DNA of 64,000 nt, from the NCBI GenBank assembly GCA_947625515.1, contig CANQOO010000002.1:22238-86237 (forward strand), in the 5' to 3' direction. The notes under the pieces are model-generated. The model was not told the origin of the DNA. It saw nothing but the letters and a program-made list of their open reading frames with translations, and searched no databases. The stretch comes from an uncultured Clostridia bacterium (GTDB taxonomy: Bacteria; Bacillota; Clostridia; Christensenellales; UBA1242). The position numbers were made by a program, and so were the translations under genes. Shown here in pieces: positions 42,963 to 63,523 of the stretch (its first letter is position 1; every line of letters begins with the position of its first letter).

Positions 42963-43020
42963 CAAAAAATCGGCAAAAGAATTTTGTCGATTTTCGTGCA
43001 ATTGATGATTTAAAATTTTT
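42963..43020. repeat. ~58-bp terminator-containing intergenic module, copy 1
   Basis: AAAAAATCGGCAAAAGAATTTTGTCGATTTTCGTGCAATTGATGATTTAAAATTTTT, similar to 44119-44177. Confidence 0.7.
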
Positions 43021-43034
43021 GGACACCAACTTAA

Positions 43035-43775
43035 TCACACATTCCCAATATCTTTGTGTGCGTCTTTAAACTCTTTGGAAAAATCATAGTCGGTGTTTTT
43101 AAAAGCCTTCTTGTTAAATGCTTCTGCTTCCGTTTGAAGTTGCGTTTTAAAACTTGCAAAGCCGTTTGCGTCGCCCTTCAAAACATATGTGCCATCATTT
43201 GCGGCGTATTTGCAACTTGTCACCTGCTCTGCACCATAGAAATTGGAATGATATGTTCGCACCTCATGGTGTTGAAAATCATAATTTATGTCGATTGTAT
43301 AATATTGCATACCTTGTATACTTTCAGAAGCTGAGCCTTCTGCAGTCATATAATATGTAATAGTAAGATTGTCGCCATCAACCTCAAATTGCATTTTAAG
43401 GTTCAGTCTATTTGACAAAAATTGGTCCACATGGAAAGTTATCACCTTGCTGGTTAAAGAATATGAGTCATTTTCCAGAATGCCCTTTGTCAGTGCAACC
43501 AATCTGCGGAAAACTGCAACTTGCTGTTTTGCCTCTTCCCCATCTTTCTTTTCCCAGTCTGCGTCCGTGAATGCCGCAGCCGAAGCGGAAGAATCATCAA
43601 AGTTCATCACTTTATATGTCGCATCAACGGCTTCAATATATTCCGCCCTTGTTCTTGCAAAGCCATCGCTCCACCAATCAAATTTCTCGCCAAAATAAAG
43701 CACTCCAAATGCCACGCACCCAATTGTGACAATCGTCACATAGACGGACAAGAGCACAACCCAAATTTTTTTCAT
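43035..43775 (-). CDS. membrane-anchored or lipoprotein-like surface protein (246 aa)
   Basis: AAGGAG RBS. N-terminus VVLLSVYVTIVTIGC. No family recognised. Confidence 0.7.
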   Translation of the reverse strand: MKKIWVVLLSVYVTIVTIGCVAFGVLYFGEKFDWWSDGFARTRAEYIEAVDATYKVMNFDDSSASAAAFTDADWEKKDGEEAKQQVAVFRRLVALTKGILENDSYSLTSKVITFHVDQFLSNRLNLKMQFEVDGDNLTITYYMTAEGSASESIQGMQYYTIDINYDFQHHEVRTYHSNFYGAEQVTSCKYAANDGTYVLKGDANGFASFKTQLQTEAEAFNKKAFKNTDYDFSKEFKDAHKDIGNV

Positions 43776-43950
43776 ACTTTTTCTCCTTTCTAATTCAAAA
43801 TTTTTCGGATTTATAAATCCATTCAGTCTTTTTCGAATTTAATTTTCGAGTTTTAAGTGTTTCAAATTTAATTTTAAAATTTTAATCTTTCCCAACTTAA
43901 TTTTCGAATTAACTTCTTCAATTTCATTTCTGAATTTTAAATCCACCCAA

Positions 43951-43982
43951 ATCATAGCACGGCTGGGGGGGGGATTTGTCAA
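43951..43982 (-). promoter_or_regulatory. promoter cassette TTGACA-aat-C9-agccg-TGcTATGAT (20-nt spacer)
   Basis: Minus-strand -35 at 43977-43982, C9 tract 43965-43973, extended -10 at 43951-43959. Same cassette as 48800-48830. Confidence 0.6.
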
Positions 43983-44118
43983 CTTTTTTTTGCAAATTTT
44001 TCAAAAATTTTTGATTTTTTTGCTTTTCATACTAATTTTCAACTTTTGTTCGCCTAATTTTTCGTTGTTTCTTAACATAATTTTCAAAATCCGCATTCTC
44101 CGGCGTTTTTGTCCCACA

Positions 44119-44177
44119 AAAAAAATCGGCAAAAAATTTGTCGATTTTCGTACATATTAATGATTTAAAAATTTTTA
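44119..44177. repeat. ~58-bp terminator-containing intergenic module, copy 2
   Basis: AAAAAAAATCGGCAAAAAATTTGTCGATTTTCGTACATATTAATGATTTAAAAATTTTT. Confidence 0.7.
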
Positions 44178-44995: not shown

Positions 44996-46357
44996 TCACA
45001 TGTCAATTCTGATGAAGGTCATCAGAAGGTCGGACCGAGAGCCGCCGTGCAATGTGCCAGTGTAGGAAATTTTGATGGTGTCCAGTTGGTCGAGGTTGAG
45101 AAACATTCCGTGGAAGAAATTGTCATACATCCCTTGCGGCACGGTGATTTTGCTGTCCTCCTCCTCTTGGTCGTTGATGTAGAGGCTGATTACAACGGAG
45201 GCATCCGTGGTGTGCATGGCGTCGATGTAGCCCTCCATAATCACATAATAAAGCCCTTCTTCGTTGACGGTGATGTCATAGTCGCCCACAGTGAGGGCAT
45301 TGGAGTCGGCAGGAATGACAATTCCGTCTGCAAGACCGGTGTAAAATCCGCCCAAAATGCTGCCCGCGTGGACGTTTTCAATCAGGCTGATGGGATTGAC
45401 GCCCGGTGGGCCAGGTATGCCCTCTGGAATGCCAAACGAGAGGACATGATTGTCGCCCACTTTTGTGTCGCTGACCGTCGCTTTGCTGCCGGCGGGAAGA
45501 GTGCTTGTTTGGCCAATCGAAATGGTGTCCGCCACACCCGGCGGGCCTTCCGGTCCTTGTGGCCCCATTGGACCTTGCTCGCCAGTTGCTCCGCCTCCTG
45601 GACCGCGTGGCCCCTGCTCCCCAACTGCACCGGTTGCACCTGTCGGACCGGTGGCACCTGTGGCTCCCGTTGCACCCGTAGCCCCTGTGGCACCAGTTGG
45701 ACCGGTCACTCCGCCTGCTGGACCTTGTGGGCCTGTCGCACCCGTGGCACCCATTGGCCCTGTCACGCCCATAGGTCCGGTTGCTCCTGTTGGACCGGTG
45801 GCACCCGTCGGACCTTGAGGACCCGTTGCACCAGTTGGACCAGTCGGACCAATCTGCCCCTCGCTCGGCACTACTCCCCCGCCGGGGAAAAGTCCTCCGC
45901 CCGGAGTAAACCCGCCTGGTGTAAGTCCGCCCGGCAAAGTCCCGCCGCCCGGAACAAACTGTCCACCGCCATTCATTCCGCCGCTTTGCCCACCACTCAT
46001 TCCACTCTGCCCACCATTTTGTTTGATGGCAATGCTTGCAGCCACAATCGAGCCATCAACAAATGTGGCATCCTCCGGAAAATTGTTCAGGCAAGGATTG
46101 CAAATCTTCCCACCCTTGGGCAAACAAACGGTCTGCCCGCAGCAAGGTTCCAGTCGCTGCCCTTCGCACTCTCTCTTCCCAAAAAGCGGCTGCCGCCCCA
46201 CATTTTGACACCCTTTCCCCTGCCCGCAGTTCTGGAAACTGTTGACCTGCCCGCCGCTGTTCTGGCAATTACTAGGCTGCCCGCTGCTTTTCTGACATTT
46301 TTTAGGTTGCCCACCGCACTTTTGGCAATTTTTCCCGCTGAAAAAACAATTTTTCAT
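44996..46357 (-). CDS. collagen-like triple-helix repeat protein with Cys-rich N-terminus and globular C-terminus
   Basis: 453 aa. N-terminal [23 protein letters not shown] repeats, ~45 GXT/GXY triplets ([16 protein letters not shown]...), C-terminal ~150-aa beta-rich domain. Locally GC-rich. Confidence 0.85.
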
Positions 46358-47500: not shown

Positions 47501-48748
47501 TTATTGAGCGTTATAAAGGTTGCTAAGATCGATTTTGTAGGTTGTTGTTTTGTTGCCTTCGGATTTGACGGTCACAACATATTTTTTGTTCTTCTTTGCT
47601 TCGTTAAGCTGAATCACAATGCCGTCATCTTCTGCATCAAGGACTTTTTGAGCTTCGCCTTCATAACCAATCTTGATTTCTTCTGCGTCTTGTGGGCGTT
47701 GAACTTTCAGAACGATGTATTTTGGAGGATTCTCCGCATTCCACCCCTCAGTATTTCCCCAGAAGGCTTGATATTGGTCTTGGCTCATTTCATTTGCAGT
47801 GGCATATCTATTGAATTTATATACGCGGTTTCCAACAAGTTCAAGATTGCCATAATTTTGATTCTCAAATTGCGTTTCTGTGCCGACAAGTGTGTAAGAG
47901 CCATCATAGTCAGACACAACACCGTCCTCGGTCATGTCAGCATATTGTGCAGCATCGGCTGGAAGGGTCACGCTGCCGCCAGCGGTGATAGTTGTCTTGA
48001 CGGTCACTGCAGAGTTTGGGTTCTCTCCTGGCAATTCATTTGCAAGAACAAACTTTGTGAATTTATTGTTGTTGAATGTGACCGCAAGGTTTGTTTTAGT
48101 TTTTGCAGTTTGATTGGCGTAATTCAATTCGAAAGTCACGTCTCCGCCATCTTCAGTCTTGAAAAATTCATAGCCCGTTTTCAGCTCATAATCTGTGCCT
48201 TTTTGCTCAAAAGCCTGTTCAAGAGGTGTACTTAAAGTTCCTTCCATGTCTTCAGCATAAAGAAGCACCATCTGAATGATGCCGCCAGCTCCGTCACCGC
48301 CAATATCTTGCACAAACTTTTCCTGTGTGGTTGTGACATAAGACTTTGTCTCAGCGGTGTAAGCCTTGCCATCTTTGTAATACATTGTCTGAGCAACTTC
48401 CATTGTTTCTTTTGTTGTTGGTGTTGTCTCAGTCATTTTCATTTGGGCAGCCAAAGACATTTGGGTGATTTCTTTTGTTTTTGGTGTGCCAGTGCCCACT
48501 TCTTCTTTCACAACCGCACCAGAAGCATTGACATATGTCTCAGCCTTCGTGTCGTCCTCTTCATCAAGCTCGGACATCTCAATTTCATATGTGTAGTTAT
48601 CCAATTCAAACACAATTTCGTTTTCCTCAACAAAATCCAAATAGTCCTTCATTGTTGCCTCTGTGGTTGTTGGTCCGCAAGCACAAAGTGTCAGCCCACA
48701 AACCAACACCATCGCTACGCACGCCATGACGCTCAATAATTTTTTCAT
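47501..48748 (-). CDS. lipoprotein, unknown (415 aa)
   Basis: Start set at MKKLLSVMACVAMVLVCGLTLCACG (AAGGAG RBS). ORF also open to ATG 48793. Confidence 0.7.
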   Translation of the reverse strand: MKKLLSVMACVAMVLVCGLTLCACGPTTTEATMKDYLDFVEENEIVFELDNYTYEIEMSELDEEDDTKAETYVNASGAVVKEEVGTGTPKTKEITQMSLAAQMKMTETTPTTKETMEVAQTMYYKDGKAYTAETKSYVTTTQEKFVQDIGGDGAGGIIQMVLLYAEDMEGTLSTPLEQAFEQKGTDYELKTGYEFFKTEDGGDVTFELNYANQTAKTKTNLAVTFNNNKFTKFVLANELPGENPNSAVTVKTTITAGGSVTLPADAAQYADMTEDGVVSDYDGSYTLVGTETQFENQNYGNLELVGNRVYKFNRYATANEMSQDQYQAFWGNTEGWNAENPPKYIVLKVQRPQDAEEIKIGYEGEAQKVLDAEDDGIVIQLNEAKKNKKYVVTVKSEGNKTTTYKIDLSNLYNAQ

Positions 48749-48799: not shown

Positions 48800-48830
48800 A
48801 TTCTATCACTTCGGGGGGGGGATTTGTCAA
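48800..48830 (-). promoter_or_regulatory. promoter cassette TTGACA-aat-C9-gaag-TGaTAGAAT (19-nt spacer)
   Basis: Minus-strand -35 at 48825-48830, C9 tract 48813-48821, extended -10 at 48800-48808. Confidence 0.6.
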
Positions 48831-53971: not shown

Positions 53972-56701
53972 ATGGCTCTTTTTGGAAAACAGAAAAAAGA
54001 CAAAAAAAACAAGCTGGAAAACGTTTCTTTGTCTGAAGAAGAAACAACGGCTCCTGTTAAAGAGTCTCCTGCCGACACAAATTATGTCAGGGATTTATAT
54101 GAAGACCTCAAAAACAATGCAGACAACACTCTTGCCAAAGATGCACGTGCTTATGCAGTTGTTTTTAATGACGAGTTTGAAAAATTTAAACAAGGTCAAA
54201 CTTTCGTTGATGAAAATGCTGCGATTGCCTCTTTCCTTGGACAAGAAAGTGGAAATGTCGTGATCAACAGCGACGGCAAACTTGTTTCACGCCATAATCA
54301 AGAATTTGGCCCAAAAATGCATTTCGCAGACCTCTATTCAGATCTGCAAAACAGTCCCGAAAGCACTTTTTCAAAAAATGTTCGGGCATATGCCGAGGTT
54401 TTGAAAACTGATTTTGAAAAATTTAAACAGGGCAAATCTTTCCCAAGTGAAGATATCGCAGTTGTTTCTTTCTATGCACATGATTTAGGTCTCGTTAGAG
54501 ATGAAAACGGTTTGCTTGTAGACAAGCCAAACAAGGAATATTTTGCTCCAAGATTGCAAGCGGCTACATTTTATGTCACCATGAATGAGAATCCGGCCGA
54601 CAAGGCTGTTCAAAATGCAAAGCTGTATGCAGAGCTTTTCAAAGATGACTTTGAAAAATTTAAAAAAGAAAGAATTTTCTCAAATGACAATGCTGCAATT
54701 GCTGCTTTCTTCATGCATGAAAGCAAATTTGAAAAAGCAACTTTTCCTGAAAAATTTAAGCAAGTCCTGCAATATCGTCAAATGCATGAACCTAAACAGC
54801 CAACTCCAACAACCAACGAACAAAAGCAGTCCATTGCCAATGTACGCGAAAACTTGATTGGAAGCGATGACCTGACCGAGCAACTTCGTGCAGAAGCACT
54901 CGCTCCAAATTCAAAATCTCAATTTGTAGCAAATCAATCGAATGTTGCTGATGATGTAAATGTAGTTAACTCCGCTGACAACAGCACCTCATCCACAGAT
55001 TCTGGCAATGCGGGCAATTCGTCCGCGGAAAATGATGTTGTGGGCGGAAGTGATGCTGCCGGCGGAAATGATGCACCACAAAGCTCAACGGATGAAGCAG
55101 ACACTTCTTCGGAGGAAGGTGGCGACCCAGCCTCGGACGGCGACAATCCACCGGACAGCACTGGCGAAAGTGGCGACGACAACGCAAGCAACTCGCCCGA
55201 AGGAAGCGACGATATTCCGCAAGGAGAGCCGTCTGCAGTTGAGGTTTATGAGCGTAACCGCAGAGAATCGGGTGACAATGGCAACAATGGCGAATCCGGC
55301 AACAATGAGAGAGGGAATGATGGTGGCAACAACGGCGAGAATGGAAACAACGACAGCGGAAACAATGATGGTGGAAATGGCGGAAACGACGACAACCACG
55401 ACACCAATGATGTCATTAACGATGCAGCAGATGATGACACGCCGATAGCAAATGATGAAAATGAGGATAGTTCTGCTGGCGACGAACACACTGGCGACGA
55501 ACACGCTGATGACGTGCATACTGACCGCAAACACCTTGGCAACGAACAAGGTTTAAATCTAGAAACCAATCCAGACATCAATCGCCTGCGAGGATACATT
55601 CCAGAAGGGATTGACAACGAAAGTTTGGAAAAACATAACAAGCTTCAAGCAGCGTCGAAAAAAATTGCCAAGAAAAAAGTTAAGCCAAATCTCAAAATCA
55701 AGGCCACTGACCCATTTCCAACAATGACATTTCTCGGCGTTGCTATGATTGCAACGATGGTCTGCACCCTGGCACCATTTTCTATGCTTATTGGCGTTGT
55801 TTCAATTGGGATTTTGGCTGTGGCCGCGGTGATGTATATTCATCCAATTATCCAAATCAAAAAGCTCATAAACATAAATAGAGCTTGGCGAAAAGAACGA
55901 AACTTGATTAAAAGCAAAATTAAAGAACTGCAAAGTTGGAAGGCCTTGACAGAATCTAAAAATAAGAAAATTCGGGAAGAATTTAAGTCTCTCGACAAGG
56001 CCCTTGACAAAGAAATTAAACGCCTGAGAAAGTCCTTAGAATCAGAAAAATTGCAACGTCGCGAAAGAGCAAGAGAAGACCTTAAAAGAGGCTTTCAGGA
56101 GCAACTCACCGCCTTGCAAAATAAGGGCAAAGACATCTCTGCCACCGAAACCCGCAAAGTTAAAATTTTGCAAGACGCCATCAAGGAAGCCGATAGCGAT
56201 ATTAACAAGCTGAAAAAAGAAATTGTCAAATCCATGAAGGCAGAGGCGAAAAAAGAGCAACAACTTGAAGAAAAGGCGAAAAAGGCAGAGGAAAAAGCCA
56301 GGAAAAAGGCTCAGGCGAGACAAAGAGCCATCTTGGAAAGACAAGCCGCAGATGTCGCAATTTCTCAGCGTGCCAGAGAAGCTGCCAATGAATATATGAA
56401 AACCGCAGACGCCAGCCAGGCGGAAATTGCCAACAGCAAAGAAATTCGCGACATCCAAGCCAAGGCCGCAAAGGCACACAAAAAAGCAGAACAAGAGCAA
56501 AAGAAAGCGGAAAAGGCCGCAGCAAAAGCCGCAAAAGAGGCCGCAAAAAAAGCAAAAGAATCCAGCGACTACAAAACGCTGCGTTCATACACTCTCTCTG
56601 ACACGGCTGACCCAGCCACCCAGACGCCCGAAACAGCCCGCGAAACATCCGATGACAGCAGGCCAGCAGTCACCGCAGACAGAGACGGCAGAAGCATTTA
56701 A
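53972..56701 (+). CDS. large repeat / low-complexity membrane protein (909 aa)
   Basis: AGGAGG RBS. 3 x ~80-aa repeats (LY.DL.N...RAYA.V...DFEKFKQG), D/N/G/S acidic tract, two TM helices (~55720-55850), K/E/A coiled-coil tail. Confidence 0.8.
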   Translation: MALFGKQKKDKKNKLENVSLSEEETTAPVKESPADTNYVRDLYEDLKNNADNTLAKDARAYAVVFNDEFEKFKQGQTFVDENAAIASFLGQESGNVVINSDGKLVSRHNQEFGPKMHFADLYSDLQNSPESTFSKNVRAYAEVLKTDFEKFKQGKSFPSEDIAVVSFYAHDLGLVRDENGLLVDKPNKEYFAPRLQAATFYVTMNENPADKAVQNAKLYAELFKDDFEKFKKERIFSNDNAAIAAFFMHESKFEKATFPEKFKQVLQYRQMHEPKQPTPTTNEQKQSIANVRENLIGSDDLTEQLRAEALAPNSKSQFVANQSNVADDVNVVNSADNSTSSTDSGNAGNSSAENDVVGGSDAAGGNDAPQSSTDEADTSSEEGGDPASDGDNPPDSTGESGDDNASNSPEGSDDIPQGEPSAVEVYERNRRESGDNGNNGESGNNERGNDGGNNGENGNNDSGNNDGGNGGNDDNHDTNDVINDAADDDTPIANDENEDSSAGDEHTGDEHADDVHTDRKHLGNEQGLNLETNPDINRLRGYIPEGIDNESLEKHNKLQAASKKIAKKKVKPNLKIKATDPFPTMTFLGVAMIATMVCTLAPFSMLIGVVSIGILAVAAVMYIHPIIQIKKLININRAWRKERNLIKSKIKELQSWKALTESKNKKIREEFKSLDKALDKEIKRLRKSLESEKLQRRERAREDLKRGFQEQLTALQNKGKDISATETRKVKILQDAIKEADSDINKLKKEIVKSMKAEAKKEQQLEEKAKKAEEKARKKAQARQRAILERQAADVAISQRAREAANEYMKTADASQAEIANSKEIRDIQAKAAKAHKKAEQEQKKAEKAAAKAAKEAAKKAKESSDYKTLRSYTLSDTADPATQTPETARETSDDSRPAVTADRDGRSI

Positions 56702-62302: not shown

Positions 62303-63523
62303 CTATTTATTTAGGCTCTTTGCCACTGCCGTCAAGTTGAGGTGAAGTGCCGGACGGACGGCAGAGGTGCTGCTAACATTAATGCTAGGATGATCGCCGC
62401 CTTCCGCACTGAGGTCGCAAGCATAAGTTGACCCCGTGGAAGGAGCCGAACGCAACCAATAAATGTCGGAATTTGCTCGTTGATTTACTGACACCATCCA
62501 AAGGCTCTTGCCACCATGTCCCGTTTCAGACAGCGATGGGATCCAAAGTCTATCATCCGCCCATGCGTCGTTTTTAGCCTTTTTAGCGTAGTTATAATCA
62601 CCGCTGTAGAAGCCCTCGTCTGTCACTTCACTCGACCAAGCGTCATTAGAGATGTTATTCCAATATTTGGCAGAATCTATTGCGGACTGAAACTCCTGCC
62701 AAGCCACTTGCCTTGGAGTGACAATGAAGTCTGAAATCTCGTTATAATAAACGCCATCTGTCATTGTGAATTTGGCGAACACGCTTTGTTCATTTTGAAC
62801 ATAGTTCACCAACTCGGAATTTGCGGAGCCAGTTTTGTTGGAATATAGCCCTCCATTGTTTAACACGACCGCGTGCATATATGAAGCACCATAGAGATTG
62901 TCCGGTACTTCCGCAGCCCTTGACGCAGTAGCATTTGGGGCAAAGCCACTGCTCCAAGTGGAAGTTCCATTTTCATCAAATGTTTTCCCGTCGGCATATG
63001 TTTCTCCGCTCAGTTGCGAGGAATCCGTCAGCCAAAGGGTGAGAATCACGTCGTGCGGCTCGTTGTCTTTCCCCTCGTTTGTGGTGGAAAGAAAGACCGG
63101 CGTCCATTTAAGCCCGCCCAGCTCCACAATAATTTCCGCATCATAACTCTTGGCAGAGACGGAATAATTGTCGTCCGCAGATGCGGGGTTCACCTTGTTG
63201 TAGTTTGCAATTATGTCCTCCGAGGTCATCCTTGTTGTTGCAAGGGTTTCAATCGGTGCCATGTTGTCCACCGTCGCTGTGCTGTCGCCTGAAATGTTCC
63301 ACAACAGTTTGTTGACATTGCTCTTGTCAAAAACTTGTGACACACTGTCCCATAGGTCCTGCGAAATGTCATAGATAACAGAAAAGCCGCCCTCAATGCC
63401 AGTCGAAAGAGCAGCCAAAACTATGTTGGTCATTGTGCATGCAATAACAAAAAGAAAAAGACAAACAAAGCCGGTGTATTTCAGCTTGTCAAATATACCC
63501 CCCCCCGCAAATTTACGCCTCAT
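62303..63523 (-). CDS. secreted/surface protein, paralog of 10951-12699, with G9 tract in codons 6-9
   Basis: 406 aa, AAAGGAG RBS. Shared blocks DIIANYNK, SYDAEII.ELG.L.WTPV.LS, ILTLWL.D, WIPSLSETG, WLRS, AVRPALHLNL. Confidence 0.75.
   Translation of the reverse strand: MRRKFAGGGIFDKLKYTGFVCLFLFVIACTMTNIVLAALSTGIEGGFSVIYDISQDLWDSVSQVFDKSNVNKLLWNISGDSTATVDNMAPIETLATTRMTSEDIIANYNKVNPASADDNYSVSAKSYDAEIIVELGGLKWTPVFLSTTNEGKDNEPHDVILTLWLTDSSQLSGETYADGKTFDENGTSTWSSGFAPNATASRAAEVPDNLYGASYMHAVVLNNGGLYSNKTGSANSELVNYVQNEQSVFAKFTMTDGVYYNEISDFIVTPRQVAWQEFQSAIDSAKYWNNISNDAWSSEVTDEGFYSGDYNYAKKAKNDAWADDRLWIPSLSETGHGGKSLWMVSVNQRANSDIYWLRSAPSTGSTYACDLSAEGGDHPSINVSSTSAVRPALHLNLTAVAKSLNK
63498..63506 (-). repeat. 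G9 (coding strand) homopolymer inside the 5-prime end of CDS 62303-63523
   Basis: ATG AGG CGT AAA TTT GCG GGG GGG GGT ATA; C9 on the + strand. Confidence 0.95.

Follow-up and report, generated by a model that had tools for sequence, protein, structure and literature searches.

Does a run of nine cytosines inside the promoter of a predicted surface-protein gene act as a length-controlled switch, or has it another meaning? We addressed this for the minus-strand promoter at 43951-43990 of a 64,000-nucleotide stretch of DNA (the window), which corresponds to C2:22238-86237 in the assembly of an uncultured Clostridia bacterium (G000; 1.11 Mb in 11 contigs, 80.7% complete, 42.5% G+C). Read from 43990 to 43951, the minus strand is AAAAAAAAG-TTGACA-AAT-CCCCCCCCC-AGCCGTGC-TATGAT: A8-G stands before TTGACA, the tract is C9 and the hexamers are 20 nt apart, so that the homopolymer lies between recognisable -35 and -10 hexamers as in promoters of the porA / tp0126 type. 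An earlier note on this DNA had read the promoter in the same way, and its further claim of a twin with the same -35, AAT linker and C9 but a different -10-proximal part also holds (Table 1).

Table 1. Features of the locus and tract lengths in near-identical assemblies. Positions carrying a contig prefix (C1, C4) refer to the contigs of G000; all others are window positions.
Feature	Position	Strand	Basis or remark	Tract length seen
58-bp terminator-like element, upstream copy, end of hydrolase transcription unit	44120-44175	-	88% identical to 42964-43020 copy	
UP-element-like A/T-rich block, phased A/T runs	43983-44030	-	sequence; function predicted	
-35 hexamer TTGACA, perfect consensus	43977-43982	-	sequence	
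Linker AAT, 5' of the C9 tract	43974-43976	-	sequence	
C9 homopolymer in promoter spacer, candidate slippage tract (focal locus)	43965-43973	-	sequence	C9 in G000, ERZ27249386, ERZ27249389, ERZ27249684
3' linker AGCCGTGC and -10 hexamer	43951-43964	-	sequence	
TG of extended -10 (inside AGCCGTGC, one base 5' of -10)	43959-43958	-	sequence	
-10 hexamer TATGAT	43956-43951	-	sequence	
A/T-rich leader, 175 nt, degenerate AAATTCGAAAA repeats	43776-43950	-	sequence	
RBS AAGGAG	43788-43783	-	sequence	
Gene for 246-aa protein, N-terminal membrane anchor, ectodomain without known family	43035-43775	-	ORF	
58-bp terminator-like element, downstream copy, 3' of 246-aa gene	42964-43020	-	88% identical to 44120-44175 copy	
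Twin cassette TTGACA-AAT-C9-GAAGTGA-TAGAAT, spacer 19, upstream of lipoprotein-like gene 47501-48748	48800-48830	-	sequence	C9 in G000 and ERZ27249389
Poly-C tract	C1:22552			C9 in sibling assemblies
Poly-C tract	C4:1194			C9 in sibling assemblies
Poly-C tract	C1:37189			C10, C10 and C8 among near-identical assemblies
Poly-C tract	C1:41380			C9 in G000 and one assembly; C10 in three assemblies

The 15-mer TTGACAAATCCCCCC occurs twice in the window, where 0.02 copies are expected, and four times in the genome. The earlier note had taken the shared -35 and AAT linker as the mark of a module. We find instead that these parts are the generic strong-promoter consensus of the genome: AAT follows TTGACA in 21/120 ordinary promoters, more often than any other trinucleotide. 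The region upstream follows the same pattern. Over positions -35 to -1 relative to TTGACA, A+T is 0.9-1.0 in 14 poly-C promoters, whose upstream consensus is AAAATTTTTnAAAAnTTTTTnAAAAA, against 0.7-0.8 in 120 ordinary promoters; by its composition, the A/T-rich block is a stronger form of a general promoter trend. Because the shared parts match any strong promoter of the genome, we regard the poly-C cassettes as a design that recurs, rather than a mobile module present in several copies. The two poly-C promoters of the window flank a gene for a collagen-repeat protein (44996-46357; Pfam Collagen, 3e-09, with a weak BclA_C-like end below cut-off), which shares its strand with the lipoprotein-like gene and the hydrolase.

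The surroundings of the promoter bear on how the unit arose. The two copies of the 58-bp element are the only ones in the genome and they bracket the promoter and the 246-aa gene. In none of the 11 closest relatives does the promoter-gene-terminator unit lie upstream of groES. From the bracketing pair together with this absence, the 246-aa gene is a lineage-specific accessory gene, and the arrangement suggests that it arrived by insertion into the hydrolase terminator region or was duplicated together with that region. A mobile promoter-gene cassette was considered and rejected: the flanking element has only two copies, the leader is unique, the shared promoter parts are generic and the gene is missing beside groES in those same relatives. 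Neither leader nor flanking repeat is a dispersed element, since they number one and two genomic copies, respectively.

The start codon of the ORF is at 43775-43773, 175 nt past the -10 hexamer, close to the ~180 nt given earlier. Against Rfam the intervening leader matched no family (best E-values 0.13 and 0.91, far under gathering scores) and it folds no better than shuffled sequence (z = -0.81), which together rule out a riboswitch or known RNA. A genome search gave no second copy of it.

The product itself has few relatives. Pfam and NCBIfam searches gave no hits, and among 5.8 billion proteins only two close homologues were found, ~70% identical. Residues 5-28 are hydrophobic and part of this stretch, including Cys20, is invariant across the orthologues. 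The N-terminus had been described as an anchor or a lipobox-like TIGC. The hydrophobic N-terminus with its TIGC is indeed there, but a canonical lipobox ([LVI][ASTVI][GAS]C) is not: read by eye, the residue at -3 is T, and VAFGVLYF follows Cys20. Because the hydrophobic stretch runs 8 residues past Cys20 and -3 is T, an uncleaved signal-anchor is likelier than a lipoprotein, and we take the product to be a predicted membrane-anchored surface protein with its topology deduced from these residues. An AF2 model built on a 3-sequence alignment gave a helix at 2-32 followed by helices and a beta-meander, with a mean pLDDT of 46.8 that is too poor for use. Among the coding regions downstream of poly-C promoters, likeness to the 246-aa protein is limited to the signal-anchor and to one paralogue, the product of the C1:37189 gene, with which it shares 50% identity over 36 residues.

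We then considered the C9 run among all homopolymers of the genome. Runs of C or G are bimodal in length (length 5, n=318; 6, n=2; 7, n=1; 8, n=4; 9, n=26; 10, n=6; 11, n=3), whereas A/T runs fall off smoothly. Selection for hypermutable tracts usually leaves a gap of this kind in a run-length distribution. The tracts are both long enough for hypermutability and over-represented, with 39 runs of 8-11 against 3 of 6-7. The spacers of fifteen TTGACA...TAnnnT promoters contain a poly-C tract, in each case with C on the sense strand; about 16 G runs lie directly 3' of a start codon in one paralogous exported-protein family and are candidate coding switches; nine further tracts are of other kinds. 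The genes behind 12-13 of the 15 promoter tracts encode products with signal peptides, lipoprotein-like or membrane-anchored products, or products with C-terminal membrane helices. A genome search for further copies, as the earlier note had proposed, therefore does find them, and the dispersed set that it envisaged exists, spread over a 1.11-Mb genome.

Several of these tracts have features of their own. One promoter family, TTGACAAAAAT-Cn-GCTAAAAT, has four copies ahead of genes for 305-308-aa secreted proteins, with n = 10 at C2:25-34, 11 at C9:25866-25876, 9 at C1:61754 and 9 at C1:79129. A related pair on contig C6 (54437-54445, nine C; 55452-55462, eleven C) has GCAATACCCGCC after the tract and TTTTTGT(C/T)AAAAAA before it, and belongs to neither the promoter nor the start-codon class. 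Within the window, the poly-G coding-switch family is represented by the G9 at 63498-63506 (minus strand; start codon ATG at 63523-63521), which is in frame and reads MRRKFAGGGIFDKLKYTGFVCLF. This copy has one extra base 3' of the tract, TATATTTGAC in place of ATTTTTGAT, and because of that base G9 would be ON here and OFF in most paralogues. The coding switches always have G on the sense strand; promoter-spacer runs almost always have C.

Loss of mismatch repair (MMR) does not account for the tracts: mutS1 and mutL are adjacent and intact in this genome (C3:6002-10594) and in 25/25 genus genomes searched, kept despite genomes of ~1 Mb and dense homopolymer tracts. Since both genes are intact, and since the tract of the Neisseria meningitidis opc promoter changed in 0/89 colonies of MMR-proficient meningococci (PMC3447861), slow switching with a stable consensus is what one would expect, and it fits the constant C9 seen here. 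Any switching may thus be slow.

The spacing of the hexamers indicates what a change of tract length could do. Ordinary promoters, defined as TTGACA plus at least a 5/6 match to TATAAT and no C run, have spacers of 17 nt (n=75) or 18 nt (n=45) over a background of ~8 per length. Poly-C promoters of the same genome have spacers of 20 nt (n=7, the focal copy included), 19 nt (n=3), 18 nt (n=2, counting a truncated copy at the end of contig C9), 17 nt (n=1) and 16 nt (n=2). Given the ordinary preference, the focal promoter at its assembled length exceeds the optimum by 2-3 nt; a tract of C7 would bring the spacer to 18 nt and one of C6 to 17 nt. A shift across the optimum is seen at a paralogue, C1:37189, where the C8 allele takes the spacer from 20 to 18 nt. 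For other species of the genus 116 cassettes were listed; their spacers peak at 16 nt (48) and 15 nt (29), and the tracts are C9 in 80, C8 in 27, C10 in 5 and C7 in 4. Assembled spacers hence tend to exceed the optimum in the focal species and to fall below it in the relatives. Tract length and linker length do not compensate for each other (rho = 0.00), which fits a tract length floating around a mutational equilibrium and not one tuned to hold a fixed spacer. Two features of these data count against reading the run as a switch: two or three C's would have to be lost at the focal copy to reach 17-18 nt, and spacers are off the optimum in 13/15 cassettes here and in ~105/116 of those listed from relatives.

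To look for variation in tract length we compared near-identical assemblies (Table 1). Contigs of four ENA sibling assemblies (ERZ27249386, ERZ27249389, ERZ27249395 and ERZ27249684), recovered by exact-protein look-ups and assembled from 2.5-4x coverage, are 99.8-100% identical to G000, which was probably derived from one of them. Over the ~31 kb of sibling contigs compared, tract differences were the only indels, beside 11 substitutions. Length polymorphism, which the earlier note had named as one test of its idea, is thus present at two sister cassettes, C1:37189 and C1:41380. At this coverage a consensus may contain homopolymer miscalls, but C10 in three assemblies at C1:41380 argues against a miscall there. 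Near-identical paralogous promoters within the genome likewise differ in tract length only (C9/C9/C10/C11 in one family, C10/C11/C10 in a second).

At the focal locus no length variation was seen among G000, three sibling assemblies and two orthologues (few sequences, those of the siblings low-coverage consensuses), and the twin is C9 in every copy seen. A scan of JGI metagenomes for the focal locus, with tract lengths of 5-15 allowed, gave 0 hits, and exact-protein look-ups for five other cassette genes returned no record. Because the four assemblies and the two ~70%-identical orthologues all have C9, the case for switching at this copy is an indirect one. Homopolymers are error-prone and the sibling assemblies are of low coverage, and both could make one suspect that the tract or its length arose in sequencing or assembly. 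We consider this highly improbable, in line with the view taken earlier: the same C9 promoter is found in three further independent assemblies, the same tract recurs in Logan contigs of unrelated runs and in 70/121 genus genomes from many projects, and within promoters and start-proximal codons the position of the tracts is constant.

Comparison with the orthologues raises the question of whether the focal copy still works. The two close orthologues (L049 and L050, Logan contigs from unrelated runs) both have a C9 cassette, TTGACA-ATT-C9-GTGT-TATGAT (spacer 16) in one and TTGACA-ATTT-C9-GTGT-TATGAT (spacer 17) in the other, and in both the leader is ~45 nt. Relative to these, the window copy has ~4 extra nt (AGCC) between the C9 tract and the -10, and its leader is expanded by ~125 nt of A/T-rich, degenerate AAATTCGAAAA units. 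The focal promoter might then be a decayed, locked-off relic in which a ~4-nt insertion gave the 20-nt spacer, with any expression coming from weak promoters in the 175-nt leader, where promoter-like sites occur at 43907-43879 and 43865-43836; the constancy of C9 among assemblies would suit such a relic. Those sites, however, score only 9/12, and 4.5 such sites are expected by chance in DNA this rich in A/T. Seven independent cassettes in the genome have a spacer of exactly 20 nt and three more have 19, and from this the long 3' linker appears to be a property of the lineage and not damage to a single copy. Tract, -35 box and extended -10 show no damage, and the ORF is intact and 100% conserved in the three other assemblies. 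We therefore find a relic improbable, though less so than the artefact just discussed.

Beyond the close orthologues, distant homologues of the 246-aa protein occur in 8/150 genus genomes, and a C8 or C9 cassette lies just upstream in 6/9 of these genes. The poly-C promoter cassette was found in 70/121 species genomes of the genus, with 0 hits for the reversed control pattern, and it is largely confined to this genus, five other tract-rich genomes of the order having 0-1 each. GroEL of the organism is 89% and 81% identical to those of the nearest Clostridia MAGs and 71% to that of Candidatus Coproplasma, the nearest named genus. In one set of 37 genus genomes there were ~100 matches with C and 3 with G, i.e. 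C on the sense strand is ~30 times commoner, a strand bias that a pure length switch does not predict and that counts against one.

This bias is one reason to consider that the C run is a fixed promoter element read in one orientation, for example a genus-specific regulator site or RNA polymerase contact, whose length of ~9 would be held by selection while control is exerted in trans. Of the 116 relatives' cassettes listed, 69% have C9, in a range of only 7-10; C9 is shared by the focal locus and its orthologues in spite of differing linkers; and spacers of 13-20 nt, mostly off the 17-18 optimum, look as if spacing were not the controlling variable. Nevertheless, tract length does differ between near-clonal assemblies and near-identical paralogues, and runs of the same lengths lie just past the start codons of ~16 paralogous genes, a position for which a frame switch is the only sensible reading. 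A narrow range can also result from a mutational equilibrium combined with assembly breaks at longer runs. Two copies of the four-copy family, at C2:25 and C9:25866, end their contigs exactly at the run, which indicates that long C runs break assemblies and that observed lengths are probably censored upward. Tracts of tprL, 7 to 11 long and mostly 9, vary all the same (PMC7864442). No candidate factor for a fixed element was identified. We consider a fixed element in place of a switch unlikely, if a little less so than a relic; because the sense-strand C bias and the off-optimum spacers stay unexplained by length alone, the idea of an additional fixed, orientation-specific element stays alive. 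In a bolder version, the genus would have evolved a dedicated, orientation-specific poly-C architecture, in which the run is read by RNA polymerase or a lineage-specific factor besides serving as a length ruler, giving a ~30-locus stochastic surface switchboard in an MMR-proficient, reduced-genome gut commensal. Its basis would be the ~30-fold excess of C over G on the non-template strand and the constant placement of the cassette beside a perfect -35 and a curved A/T block. We offer this as a speculation with a low probability of being right.

Overall, the C9 tract at 43951-43990 is probably a spacer-tract phase-variation switch of the porA / tp0126 type. The promoter would be of the housekeeping-sigma type, with an UP-like A/T block, a perfect TTGACA, a TG-extended TATGAT and a slippage-prone C9 run in the spacer. 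Slipped-strand changes of tract length would move the promoter in or out of the 17-18-nt window used by ordinary promoters, and transcription of the downstream gene for the predicted membrane-anchored surface protein would go up or down heritably, reversibly and independently of other loci. With its 20-nt spacer, the focal copy would most likely be off or weakly expressed. About 15 such promoters together with the ~16 poly-G coding switches could then give a mixed surface-protein repertoire within a clonal population. We infer the effect of tract length on transcription, the variation of the focal copy itself and the on/off assignment from the sequence comparisons above; on the same footing, the genes behind 43951-43990 and 48800-48830 would switch independently, as had been suggested.

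The most familiar examples of simple-sequence-repeat switching come from host-adapted pathogens (Neisseria, Haemophilus, Campylobacter, Helicobacter, Treponema and Mycoplasma), while in gut commensals attention has gone mostly to invertible promoters. Genomes of this genus are ~1.1-1.4 Mb; by tract count, every 26-36 kb holds one candidate switch, either in a promoter or in start-proximal codons and mostly for exported proteins. If the tracts do switch, they would provide stochastic surface variation, probably against phage, IgA or niche changes, and strain-level metagenomics would need homopolymer lengths to see it. The 15 promoters with their different linkers also form a natural series on spacer-length control of a Firmicute sigma-A promoter. 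The analysis newly shows how large the set is, how its spacers are distributed and how strongly one strand is preferred, and it adds the first cases of length polymorphism and the comparison with orthologues.

Four known systems invite comparison. In Mycoplasma hyorhinis, the vlp promoters have a poly-A of ~17-20 nt in the spacer and give combinatorial on/off expression. The likeness lies in a small genome with a multigene set for surface (lipo)proteins, here mostly predicted ones, each gene behind a homopolymer-spacer promoter. The tracts here are poly-C instead of poly-A, and the genus has both mutS and mutL, which mycoplasmas are not known to have. In Bordetella pertussis, fim2, fim3 and fimX have C-stretch promoters in which the run separates the BvgA activator site from the -10 and no good -35 is known. 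As here, this is a promoter family with a same-orientation C run upstream of the -10, ahead of genes for surface structures (predicted ones here), and each gene switches alone, as the genes here would; in contrast, the genes behind the poly-C promoters fall into several unrelated families, and no candidate activator was identified.

The opc gene of N. meningitidis has a poly-C promoter tract on whose C number the expression level depends (Sarkari et al. 1994, as cited in PMC3447861), and the tract replaces the -35 region (PMC7864442). Both genes, the one here encoding a predicted surface protein, have a poly-C run in their promoter, and rare variation under MMR, as in opc, would fit the constant C9. 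A promoter of the opc type can be rejected for the focal locus, where an intact TTGACA lies 3 nt upstream of the tract.

The closest parallels are N. meningitidis porA and Treponema pallidum tp0126, which have a poly-G between -35 and -10 and an optimum of 17 nt (PMC7864442). Here, too, a G/C run lies inside the sigma-70-type promoter spacer of a gene for a (predicted) surface protein and its length sets the -35/-10 distance, and the tracts, 7-11 nt long and mostly 9, match those of this type. The differences are that the host belongs to an uncultured Gram-positive-type gut Clostridia lineage, that a perfect -35, an extended -10 and an UP-like block are present in addition, that fifteen promoters of one design lie in 1.1 Mb with C almost always on the sense strand, and that the assembled spacer is 20 nt and so 2-3 steps from the optimum. 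With support for switching coming from sister loci and paralogues, the C9 promoter is best viewed as a probable further case of the porA / tp0126 type, within a large set of candidate switches in an MMR-proficient genus of gut Clostridia.
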